DNA from: a virus
Length of the DNA stretch: 61,596 nucleotides
Reading direction: 5' to 3' (one strand)
Virus record (IMG/VR): IMGVR_UViG_3300009111_000003
The position numbers were made by a program, and so were the translations under genes. The notes below the pieces were generated by a model. The model was not told the DNA's origin. It saw only the letters and a list, made by a program, of their open reading frames with translations, and made no database searches. Position 1 is the first letter of the stretch. Every line of letters begins with the position of its first letter. Positions 10,881 to 12,062 of this stretch are shown here, in pieces.

Positions 10881-11128
10881 AGCGGATTTTGCCCCGTTCG
10901 TGCCAGTCGATCGGTTTTTGGCTAAAAAGCGAGAAATCGAGATGAAAAGTTCTCGGTATATGCAATTCGTGGGACTGGGTTGGGTAGTGAATGAAATAGT
11001 AACTCACTGAAATCGGGCACCCTCCATGCCCGTTGCAAAGCGCGCATGCAAAACTGGTATGCAATAAAACGCATATTGTATGCAAAGTAACGTAACGGTA
11101 ACGCCCGACCCAAAACGCGTTTTGACCG

Positions 11129-11156
11129 TTGCACTTCACGCCTGCACGGGCATAAT
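11129..11156 (+). promoter_or_regulatory. Candidate sigma70-type promoter for paralogue 1 (TTGCAC-16-CATAAT)
   Basis: The sequence reads ttgcac ttcacgcctgcacggg cataat. The downstream leader carries three GGCAGGCA motifs (11201-11248). Confidence 0.4.
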
Positions 11157-11253
11157 CATTAGTGACGCCCTCACGGGGCGCACGCACGTTGACAAGTGAA
11201 GCGTGGCAGGCAGGCAGTGCAGGCGCACTGTTTGACTGATAGGCAGGCACACA

Positions 11254-11886
11254 ATGAAGTATGAAGCGCGTTTGACTGTAGTGAAGGCACTGCACGCACT
11301 AGGCAAGGCACTTGTTGACCTACAAGCACTGTTTGACACAACGCCCGTCAACAAGCGCGTGCAGGCAGTGAAGGCGTTTGACAGGGCACTGTTTACGGCA
11401 TGCGTTGACGCGCATGACGGCAACGCTGATACCGCTATCAGGCAGTGCCGTTTTCACGCCTTCACGTTGCCCTACGTTGACGCTGTAGGGCATGCGTTTG
11501 CCGTTGACGGTGGCGCAAAGCGCGGGCAAGTGACGCTACTCACTTGCACTGATACAACGGGCAAGGCGTTTGCCGTTATCACTGCACTTGACGGCAACGC
11601 TGCAAGCACAAAGTGCGTTGACACGTTCACGGGCACGCTAGCGTTTGACCGTGCAAAGGCGTGCTACCGTGCAGTGCGTGAGGGCATGCCCTACGTTGTG
11701 AAGGCAAAGGGCAAGTTTGCCGTTAGTGACAACGGGGCGCACGTCAACGCTGCACTTGTTACCGTTGCAGCGTATGAAGGCGCAACGGGCAAGGCAAAGC
11801 GCACGTTTGACGTGTACCGTGCGCACGGCACAAAGGGCAAGGGCACGGCATACCGTGCAAGTGAGGGCAAGGCACAAAGGCAGTAA
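11254..11886 (+). CDS. Unknown protein, paralogue 1 (210 aa), with atypical composition
   Basis: It aligns collinearly with ORF 12294-12851 (RFHAF, GHAFAxDGGxKRGQ, RAKAxYRAxREGxPYV, KGKFAV, HVNAA). There is no canonical SD. It lies in the VGA/TCB-free island. Confidence 0.7.
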   Translation: MKYEARLTVVKALHALGKALVDLQALFDTTPVNKRVQAVKAFDRALFTACVDAHDGNADTAIRQCRFHAFTLPYVDAVGHAFAVDGGAKRGQVTLLTCTDTTGKAFAVITALDGNAASTKCVDTFTGTLAFDRAKACYRAVREGMPYVVKAKGKFAVSDNGAHVNAALVTVAAYEGATGKAKRTFDVYRAHGTKGKGTAYRASEGKAQRQ

Positions 11887-11923
11887 CAAGGGCAACGCCT
11901 GCCACGCTTTACTTGACGGCACG

Positions 11924-11958
11924 GGGCGCATGCTACACGGCATGCGCCCTTTGCTTTG
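11924..11958 (+). terminator. Rho-independent terminator
   Basis: 10-bp stem gggcgcatgc / gcatgcgccc with loop tacacg, followed by tttgctttg. Confidence 0.7.
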
Positions 11959-12062
11959 CCCGTATGCAAACGCATCAATAGCCGATTTTATGCCATAGGA
12001 AAATCACTGCACCACGCTGTAGTGCGATAGTGGCACTTGGAAAACGCCCGAAAACTCAAGAG

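Follow-up and report, generated by a model that had tools for sequence, protein, structure and literature searches.

Why should one gene of a phage lack three short words that occur throughout the rest of its genome? The question is posed by the 61,596-nucleotide sequence of IMG/VR record IMGVR_UViG_3300009111_000003 (the whole of which is called the window), a complete genome of ~61.6 kb from an uncultured tailed phage. An earlier note on this DNA had claimed that positions 11027-11982, which cover one copy of a duplicated gene, are almost free of the trinucleotides VGA and TCB. The motif comprises GGA/TCC, AGA/TCT and CGA/TCG, and TGA/TCA lie outside it. We refer to this region as the island and to the 210-codon gene within it as the island gene. 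The depletion is real, far beyond chance and unique in the genome.

Depletion of VGA/TCB and its conservation

Exact counts over the 956 nt of the island agree with the claim: GGA, AGA, TCC, TCT and TCG are absent, CGA is found once (at 11106), and TGA and TCA occur 31 and 12 times, respectively. The genome as a whole has 7208 VGA/TCB sites (0.117 per bp, or one per 8.5 bp). Its longest site-free gaps are 877 bp (11106-11983) and 83 bp (11023-11106), those elsewhere reaching 77, 69 and 58 bp, and a gap of at least 877 bp has a Poisson expectation of ~2e-41. The zones free of RGA/TCY are slightly wider, extending over 10951-12059 for AGA/TCT and over 11023-11998 for GGA/TCC.

A trinucleotide scan and a codon shuffle, both proposed in the earlier note, gave the same picture. 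When all 32 reverse-complement trinucleotide pairs were scanned without bias, CGA/TCG, AGA/TCT and GGA/TCC led with scores of 28-32 (the next pair scored 8), and all three mapped to the island locus. Synonymous codons of the open reading frame (ORF) were shuffled 5000 times with the protein sequence and the genome codon usage held; 49.5 sites were expected and the minimum was 28, compared to none observed. The corresponding z score is -9.8 for the island gene and ranges from -3.4 to +5.2 for the other 59 genes. The codon rules that had been described hold as well, as all 18 GAN codons (Asp/Glu) are preceded by T, Ser is encoded by AGY only, and the codons GGA, AGA and CGA are not used. A codon-level (tRNA) cause is nevertheless ruled out, because the depletion is independent of the reading frame and spans the non-coding flanks. 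Since TGA/TCA occur at about normal frequency, it is the base at position -1 (V vs T) that discriminates, and the rule can be phrased as follows: on either strand, GA is allowed only after T. The paralogous gene next door is rich in the motif, as had been stated.

Whether the depletion is conserved in related phages, a question raised in the earlier note, can be answered from three further lineages (L001, L002 and L150, the last found via terminase homology). The island of L002 has no site in 839 bp, and that of L150, where the protein shows a mere 25% identity, has none in 715 bp and none in another 103 bp. L001 retains 20 sites where ~111 are expected, 14 of them being CGA/TCG. In every lineage recovered, the island-type gene lies within the motif-free (in L001, depleted) zone. 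When the four islands are pooled, the observed/expected ratios are 0.02 for AGA/TCT, 0.03 for GGA/TCC, 0.10 for CGA/TCG and 1.17 for TGA/TCA. The trinucleotides of both strands are depleted, in line with the strand-symmetric constraint on double-stranded DNA that had been proposed. The four lineages have kept the depletion while their proteins diverged to 25-62% identity, which argues for selection. The depletion is thus maintained by selection, as the earlier note had supposed, and not by donor composition or C-to-T hypermutation.

The two processes that would operate without such selection deserve comment. Repeated context-specific C-to-T deamination, RIP-like (repeat-induced point mutation) or AID-like, of a segment that is duplicated or strongly transcribed would convert TCB to TTB and VGA to VAA; the expected products CAA/TTG and AAA/TTT are indeed ~1.8-2-fold enriched in all four islands, and the island covers one of two gene copies. 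However, erasing ~110 sites in this way would raise the AT content strongly, whereas the islands have a GC content of 55-61% compared to 54% for the genomes. Being GC-richer than their genomes, they exclude a simple C-to-T hypermutation footprint. In addition, GCA, CGC, GGC and ACG, which are not deamination products, are 2-2.6-fold enriched, the ORF is intact and conserved, untranscribed promoter DNA lies within the boundaries, and the island gene of L002 has no paralogue directly downstream. We therefore consider a mutational footprint very improbable.

Even less credible is a foreign or mobile cassette that has retained the composition of its donor. Such an origin might be suspected from the odd base composition and from a 15-nt inverted repeat at the island edges (11035-11049 / 11940-11954). 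Against it stand the paralogue of normal composition next door, the terminase-side synteny kept in four lineages, and a protein family that is confined to this phage clade among 5.8 billion proteins; conservation and paralogy effectively refute a donor-composition origin. To our knowledge, no normal genome is devoid of three trinucleotide pairs. A retron, a diversity-generating retroelement or another mobile or invertible cassette was also considered, and reverse transcriptase, recombinase and transposase domains were absent from the ORFs scanned.

Restriction-site survival and a putative modification

The other 98% of the genome (60 kb) independently yields the same V-vs-T rule. Many restriction sites are avoided to an extreme degree (observed/expected: AGCT 2/237, at 12430 and 37206; TTAA 0/167; GGCC 12/336; CCGG 63/336), and not a single copy exists of GTGCAC, CACGTG, GGTACC, CATATG, ATGCAT, AGCGCT, TACGTA, CCGCGG and GGCGCC. 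Such avoidance implies that numerous restriction-modification systems are present in the host or hosts. Avoidance depends on whether a site can hold the motif: ten 6-bp palindromes with an internal VGA/TCB are found 164 times compared to 154 expected, whereas 36 palindromes unable to hold one are found 146 times compared to 516 expected (0.28), 24 of these 36 having at most one copy.

Sites that do survive have a characteristic context. GATC is not depleted (242 observed vs 237 expected), but 237 of the 242 copies read VGATCB, with T preceding only 2 and A following only 3; pooled over both strands, such flanks number 5 in 484 compared to a baseline of 32% (P ~1e-72). For other sites the opposite flank is required, T before or A after the site being found for CCWGG in 60/60, CCGG in 59/62, CCSGG in 22/22, CCATGG in 11/11 and CTGCAG in 4/4 surviving copies (P from 7e-19 to 5e-4). 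Sites ending in G thus survive only where the flank makes TCC.../...GGA. AGCT is purged in every context, and GAGCTC is absent. The GATC signature was also found in L001, L150 and L152, a more distant relative.

As AGCT has been lost even within GAGCTC while C...G sites are rescued by their flanks, the protective feature would reside on the G or C at the centre of VGA/TCB; modification of the T in TCB or of the A in VGA is ruled out on the same grounds. A modified C in TCB fits the restriction-site statistics as well as a modified G in VGA, and we infer from these statistics both that the modification is covalent and which base pair carries it. The island itself has no GATC, CCGG, CCWGG, GGWCC, AGCT, GGCC or TTAA. 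On the other hand, TGCGCA, GCGCGC and GCTAGC have their sole genome copies inside it (at 11820, 11040 and 11637), though they are strongly avoided elsewhere.

Of several possible explanations we favour, with only moderate confidence, one in which VGA/TCB is protectively modified and the island is an early cassette that has been purged of the motif and so made unmodifiable. In each VGA/TCB, a covalent modification that blocks restriction enzymes would sit on the central G·C pair; it would affect ~21% of all G·C pairs and spare TGA/TCA. Selection would have removed every modifiable site from the promoter to the terminator of the cassette. As such a region could not be shielded, it would also have lost those restriction sites (GATC, CCGG, CCWGG) that are tolerated elsewhere only in a modified context. 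The island would then be the sole stretch of chemically ordinary virion DNA, and it is probably alone among the parts of the genome in entering the cell unmarked.

The position of the island is compatible with an early role. Structural genes run leftward from ~10.5 kb, and early and replication genes run rightward from 11.25 kb, which places the island at the head of the early operon and directly beside the terminase-side operon. Its proximity to the packaging genes, pointed out in the earlier note, is thus borne out, and the same arrangement (next to terS/terL and an inverted-repeat region, at the early-operon head) exists in four lineages. If packaging, as in lambda-like phages, proceeds from the terminase side, the end that bears the island would be packaged last and injected first. 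Its purpose would most likely be to present an immediate-early gene on plain DNA that host RNA polymerase can read before the modified bulk comes into use, hidden from modification-dependent defences; alternatively, the main benefit would be invisibility to modification-dependent restriction until an inhibitor has been made. A more specific proposal, which we put forward as tentative, is that enzymes unrelated to DpdA or known methyltransferases carry out an undescribed VGA/TCB modification, and that the first-entering gene serves as a stealth bootstrap, either enabling entry or transcription of the modified remainder or disarming modification-dependent restriction. The exemption of TGA may be explained by promoters. 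In TTGACA, the sigma-70 -35 consensus, every GA is part of a TGA and every TC part of a TCA, so the exemption would leave -35 boxes unmodified genome-wide.

The earlier note had offered two kinds of function, invisibility to a short-motif nuclease, modification enzyme or RNase on the one hand, and remaining unmodified on the other. The latter is favoured, as restriction sites outside the island survive only where they overlap VGA/TCB. Nuclease invisibility is poorly supported, since the other 60 kb hold 7208 sites. Avoidance of a CRISPR protospacer-adjacent motif was rejected, because no known motif of this kind matches and the genome-wide signature would be left unexplained.

A related possibility is that the motif is a target, attacked by a host or phage enzyme such as a nuclease that nicks or cuts frequently, an ADP-ribosyltransferase similar to DarT or a deaminase specific for TC, and that the first-expressed gene, for example an antidote, has lost its targets and so stays functional before or during the attack. 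The strict and strand-symmetric depletion from promoter to terminator would be accounted for, the cassette is self-contained with a very stable mRNA, its protein is fast-evolving and non-enzyme-like, as anti-defence proteins often are, and short-motif enzymes do exist, such as DarT2 with TNTC (PMC11543638). However, the sites in the remaining 60 kb would be destroyed or blocked anyway unless the DNA entered stepwise, and the survival of restriction sites only when they overlap VGA/TCB is left unexplained. Furthermore, no known enzyme has VGA/TCB specificity, DarT1 having no clear consensus and the DarT2 motif being different. We consider this explanation unlikely.

Several observations weigh against a protective modification with a purged early cassette. 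The argument for the modification is drawn wholly from sequence statistics, and neither DpdA/TGT (tRNA-guanine transglycosylase), FolE, QueC/D/E nor a DNA methyltransferase was found with Pfam, PHROGs, NCBIfam or tblastn with the genes of phage CAjan. GA-modified phages such as CAjan express genes from modified DNA, so that a transcription block by modification is not established; when checked, CAjan had neither a motif-free island nor an NGATC bias. L152 has the GATC/CCWGG signature but no island, which is therefore not obligatory, and the L001 island tolerates its 14 CGA/TCG though CGATC appears protected there. Finally, the assemblies are circularly permuted and so do not show the physical genome ends or the injection order.

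The proposed modification is reminiscent of the DpdA systems of the Queuovirinae, such as CAjan and iggy, which have a very short GA-centred motif on both strands, affect 16-32% of G and shield overlapping restriction sites. GA is the target of CAjan DpdA, which acts slightly less on TGA than on AGA, CGA and GGA (PMC7544227), and phage iggy has a strict GA motif comprising 16.5% of G (PMC10484667). The CAjan enzyme inserts preQ0 at GA and GGC, TGA being the least modified GA context. CAjan and the phage studied here also have in common a replication module with helicase, Cas4-like nuclease, Sak4 and DUF669, in a similar though not identical gene order. They differ in that TGA appears fully exempt here, that DpdA, FolE, QueC, QueD and QueE are missing, and that the change could sit on C. 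Membership of the DpdA family is thus not supported, and by analogy the working principle alone would be similar.

The position of the island finds parallels as well. In the first-step-transfer DNA of T5 and the early region of T7, motifs are avoided in the first-entering, first-expressed DNA near a genome end. In Murciavirus, absence of a Type I restriction-modification motif from the first-injected region alone allows phages to escape restriction (PMC12455610). In these cases a motif-free leading region suffices though the motif occurs elsewhere, and the island may be a parallel based on its position. They avoid a host restriction site of 4-8 bp, whereas the island avoids a 3-nt word that is apparently the phage's own protective site, so that its logic appears to be the inverse. 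Methyltransferase/nickase pairs of chlorella viruses, such as CviPII (CCD), recognise a three-letter word with one degenerate position, which is the style of TCB/VGA; a homologous methyltransferase or nuclease was not detected here, and we know of no unmodifiable island described in chlorella viruses.

In searches for the enzyme itself, no ORF scanned matched PF01702 or another TGT model, CAjan DpdA had no tblastn match at E<=1 in the window, L001, L150 or L152, and neither preQ0 genes (FolE, QueD, QueE, QueC) nor a YhhQ transporter were found in the window. In L152, a membrane protein gene of the Vut_1/YhhQ family (a queuosine-precursor transporter family) lies among the structural genes (17930-18520), which hints at 7-deazaguanine chemistry in the clade. 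The window has a module between primase and DnaE (31579-35090) with a FAD-fold enzyme, a dUTPase_2-HAD(NT5C) fusion, two uncharacterised proteins and an SDR, and ThyX follows just past DnaE (38381-39088). The 289-aa protein next to primase has an oxidase/mutase fold with FAD dependence, resembling VioD, UDP-galactopyranose mutase and D-amino-acid oxidase (AlphaFold, pLDDT 90). It was rejected as a motif-specific modifier, as the module more likely serves nucleotide metabolism; an analogous module of oxidoreductase, ThyX, MazG and DnaE occurs in Microbacterium phage FreddieHg. Sequence searches of the PDB found no match for the 332-aa ORF (31450-32448), for the 180-aa and 120-aa uncharacterised proteins, or for the dUTPase-HAD fusion.

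If the favoured explanation is true, this would be a new and very short phage DNA modification motif, probably with a new enzyme set, that can be read from sequence alone, and the context of surviving restriction sites would be a read-out applicable to any metagenomic phage. It would also imply that modification is costly, for transcription or via modification-dependent defences, and that phages meet this cost with a small plain-DNA bootstrap cassette at the leading end. We know of no earlier case of a phage protecting a gene from its own genome-wide modification. Such a strategy would bear on the initial expression of hypermodified genomes and on their escape from Type IV-like restriction, and would make the island protein family a candidate anti-defence or takeover factor.

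The cassette and its transcript

The island reads as a self-contained cassette, in which promoter DNA is followed by a leader that starts with a hairpin, then by the ORF and lastly by a terminator (Table 1).

Table 1. Coordinates of features at the island locus of the window
Feature	Position	Strand	Remarks
VGA/TCB-free island	11027..11982	.	strictly free 11107-11982; lone CGA at 11106
-10-like hexamer CATAAT	11151..11156	+	putative; read from sequence
G+C-rich leader hairpin gaCGCCCtcacGGGGCGc	11162..11183	+	5' end of leader; conserved in L002 (61-78)
Closing-helix 5' arm	11193..11211	+	pairs with 11897-11915; 19 nt, 95% complementary
Island gene, 210 aa	11254..11886	+	island-type branch of a very rare family; basic C-terminal tail
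Closing-helix 3' arm	11897..11915	+	begins 11 nt past the stop codon
Intrinsic-terminator-like hairpin	11919..11954	+	12 pairs, 8 G-C, then TTTGCTTTG
Normal-type paralogue, 185 aa	12294..12851	+	53% identical to island gene; 72 VGA/TCB sites in 558 nt
Large inverted repeat	10600..10839	.	42-nt arms and perfect 15-nt pair AAAAAAGCGTAGGCA/TGCCTACGCTTTTTT; between terminase-side operon and island

The -10-like hexamer lies at a fixed spacing ahead of a GTGA(G/C)G(C/G)C element, and its counterparts are CATAAT in L150 and TATGAT in L002. On this arrangement, transcription is likely to start near 11162, though an automatic sigma-70 scan called no promoter at this position. The motif depletion extends ~135 nt upstream of the likely start in the window and ~165 nt in L150, and covers no fewer than the first 59 nt of L002; one CGA/TCG is found near -60 in each of the window and L150. 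At the other end, the island terminates 28 nt beyond the terminator hairpin.

The predicted closing helix encloses the whole ORF by pairing the 5' and 3' untranslated regions of the mRNA. ORF-closing helices of unrelated sequence are found in L002 (91-106/817-832, 16/16 paired) and L001 (9977-9987/10673-10683, 11/11), and L150 has an interrupted version. As the arm sequences differ between lineages while the pairing is kept, base pairing fits better than recognition by a protein. In rRNA precursors and at phage RNase III sites, flanks likewise pair around a whole sequence; these are processed, whereas the helix described here, which is known from predicted pairing and lies ahead of a terminator hairpin, may do no more than stabilise the mRNA.

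Such structure could suggest that the constraint acts on RNA, the transcript being resistant to a ribonuclease and the complementary words being lost via self-complementarity or antisense RNA. When minimum-free-energy folds of whole transcripts were compared with dinucleotide shuffles, z was -7.6 for the window and -4.8 for L002, and the closing helix was predicted in all three transcripts folded (window, L002, L150), with L001 having the bracketing repeats. L150, however, has no excess structure (z -0.6). Loss of both VGA and UCB goes beyond the specificity of one RNase, and G·U pairing would let VGA persist. The untranscribed DNA upstream of the conserved -10 element is depleted as well, which together with the symmetry of the depletion leaves the RNase avoidance suggested in the earlier note poorly supported. 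An RNA-level constraint is, in our view, rather improbable.

With respect to translation, the earlier note had claimed that the island gene lacks the strong Shine-Dalgarno sequence used by all other genes. This was overstated, as GGAG, GAGG or AGGA occurs within 20 nt upstream in 31 of 49 genes; what stands is that a canonical GGAG is impossible inside the island, which is motif-free. Several early genes, including the paralogue, have a AGAAGGGTGG-like ribosome-binding region in place of GGAG (12270-12290, 14260-14278, 15936-15954, 16785-16803, 20919-20937). Taken as a whole, the reading in that note is partly supported, the constraint on double-stranded DNA, the selection and the site beside the packaging genes being retained and the ribosome-binding argument not.

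The island protein and its genomic surroundings

The island protein belongs to a family of five clusters among the 5.8 billion proteins. An exhaustive search with a hidden Markov model against 1.8 billion representative proteins recovered the family itself only, and searches with protein patterns and a DNA pattern against viral, metagenome and genome contigs gave chance matches only. Neither the island protein nor its paralogue had a significant match in Pfam, PHROGs or NCBIfam. The AlphaFold model (pLDDT 75) combines a helical bundle at the N terminus with a small beta domain and a basic tail, and gave no match with E<0.5 against the PDB.

Members of the family have 180-220 aa and few invariant residues, almost none of them polar, which makes it unlikely that the island gene is its own nuclease. 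From the model and the family alignment, the protein looks like a fast-evolving binder or inhibitor and not like an enzyme. The family splits into an island-type and a normal-type branch, and the duplication is older than the split of the phage studied here from the L001 phage.

The promoter region of the paralogue (12195-12240; in L001, 11019-11060) has TTGACA and, 17 nt later, GAGACT inside the palindrome GAGACTTGTCTC. This palindrome looks like an operator rich in potentially modifiable sites. Intergenic motifs similar to TTCCCTGTGATTCGGCAT and ACCCGAATATGCAAGAA are repeated after the island gene (12080-12164) and after the paralogue (12924-13017), and are conserved in relatives (L001 10800-10910, L002 900-1110); they may be regulatory or injection-related elements.

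The large inverted repeat on the other side of the island is partly kept in L001, and its location makes it a candidate packaging or control region. No Rfam family and no tRNA were found. The phage encodes a Mu-like portal, a large terminase, a DnaE-type polymerase, a primase-MCM helicase and an SNF2 helicase, together with Cas4-like nuclease, Sak4, DUF669 and ThyX. Near-identical contigs (61.6-62.5 kb) occur across several wetland-type metagenomes, and the phage is present in samples such as JGI 3300033416 and 3300033557, ERZ27228609 and SRR13394437; no close cultured relative was found, and the DNA of the locus had no similarity to any of 50,697 phage records.

Short contigs (<5 kb) carrying the island gene or the paralogue were found in 27-36 collection blocks, compared to only 1-15 blocks for five other genes checked (both neighbours, 9832-10497 and 13347-13781, as well as 17470-17934, 33496-34038 and 45672-46190). 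This excess at 10.7-13.1 kb could stem from better sequencing or coverage where the DNA is unmodified, from a terminal repeat or from conservation among strains. The L002 lineage is seen solely as one 2.3-kb contig. Among independent assemblies the locus has a single polymorphism, G/A at 11384 (Arg/Lys), and neither allele creates a VGA/TCB site. Elsewhere in the genome, a 752-aa ORF between head and tail genes (57838-60096) has an odd GC content by codon position (0.56/0.59/0.41) and no domain match.

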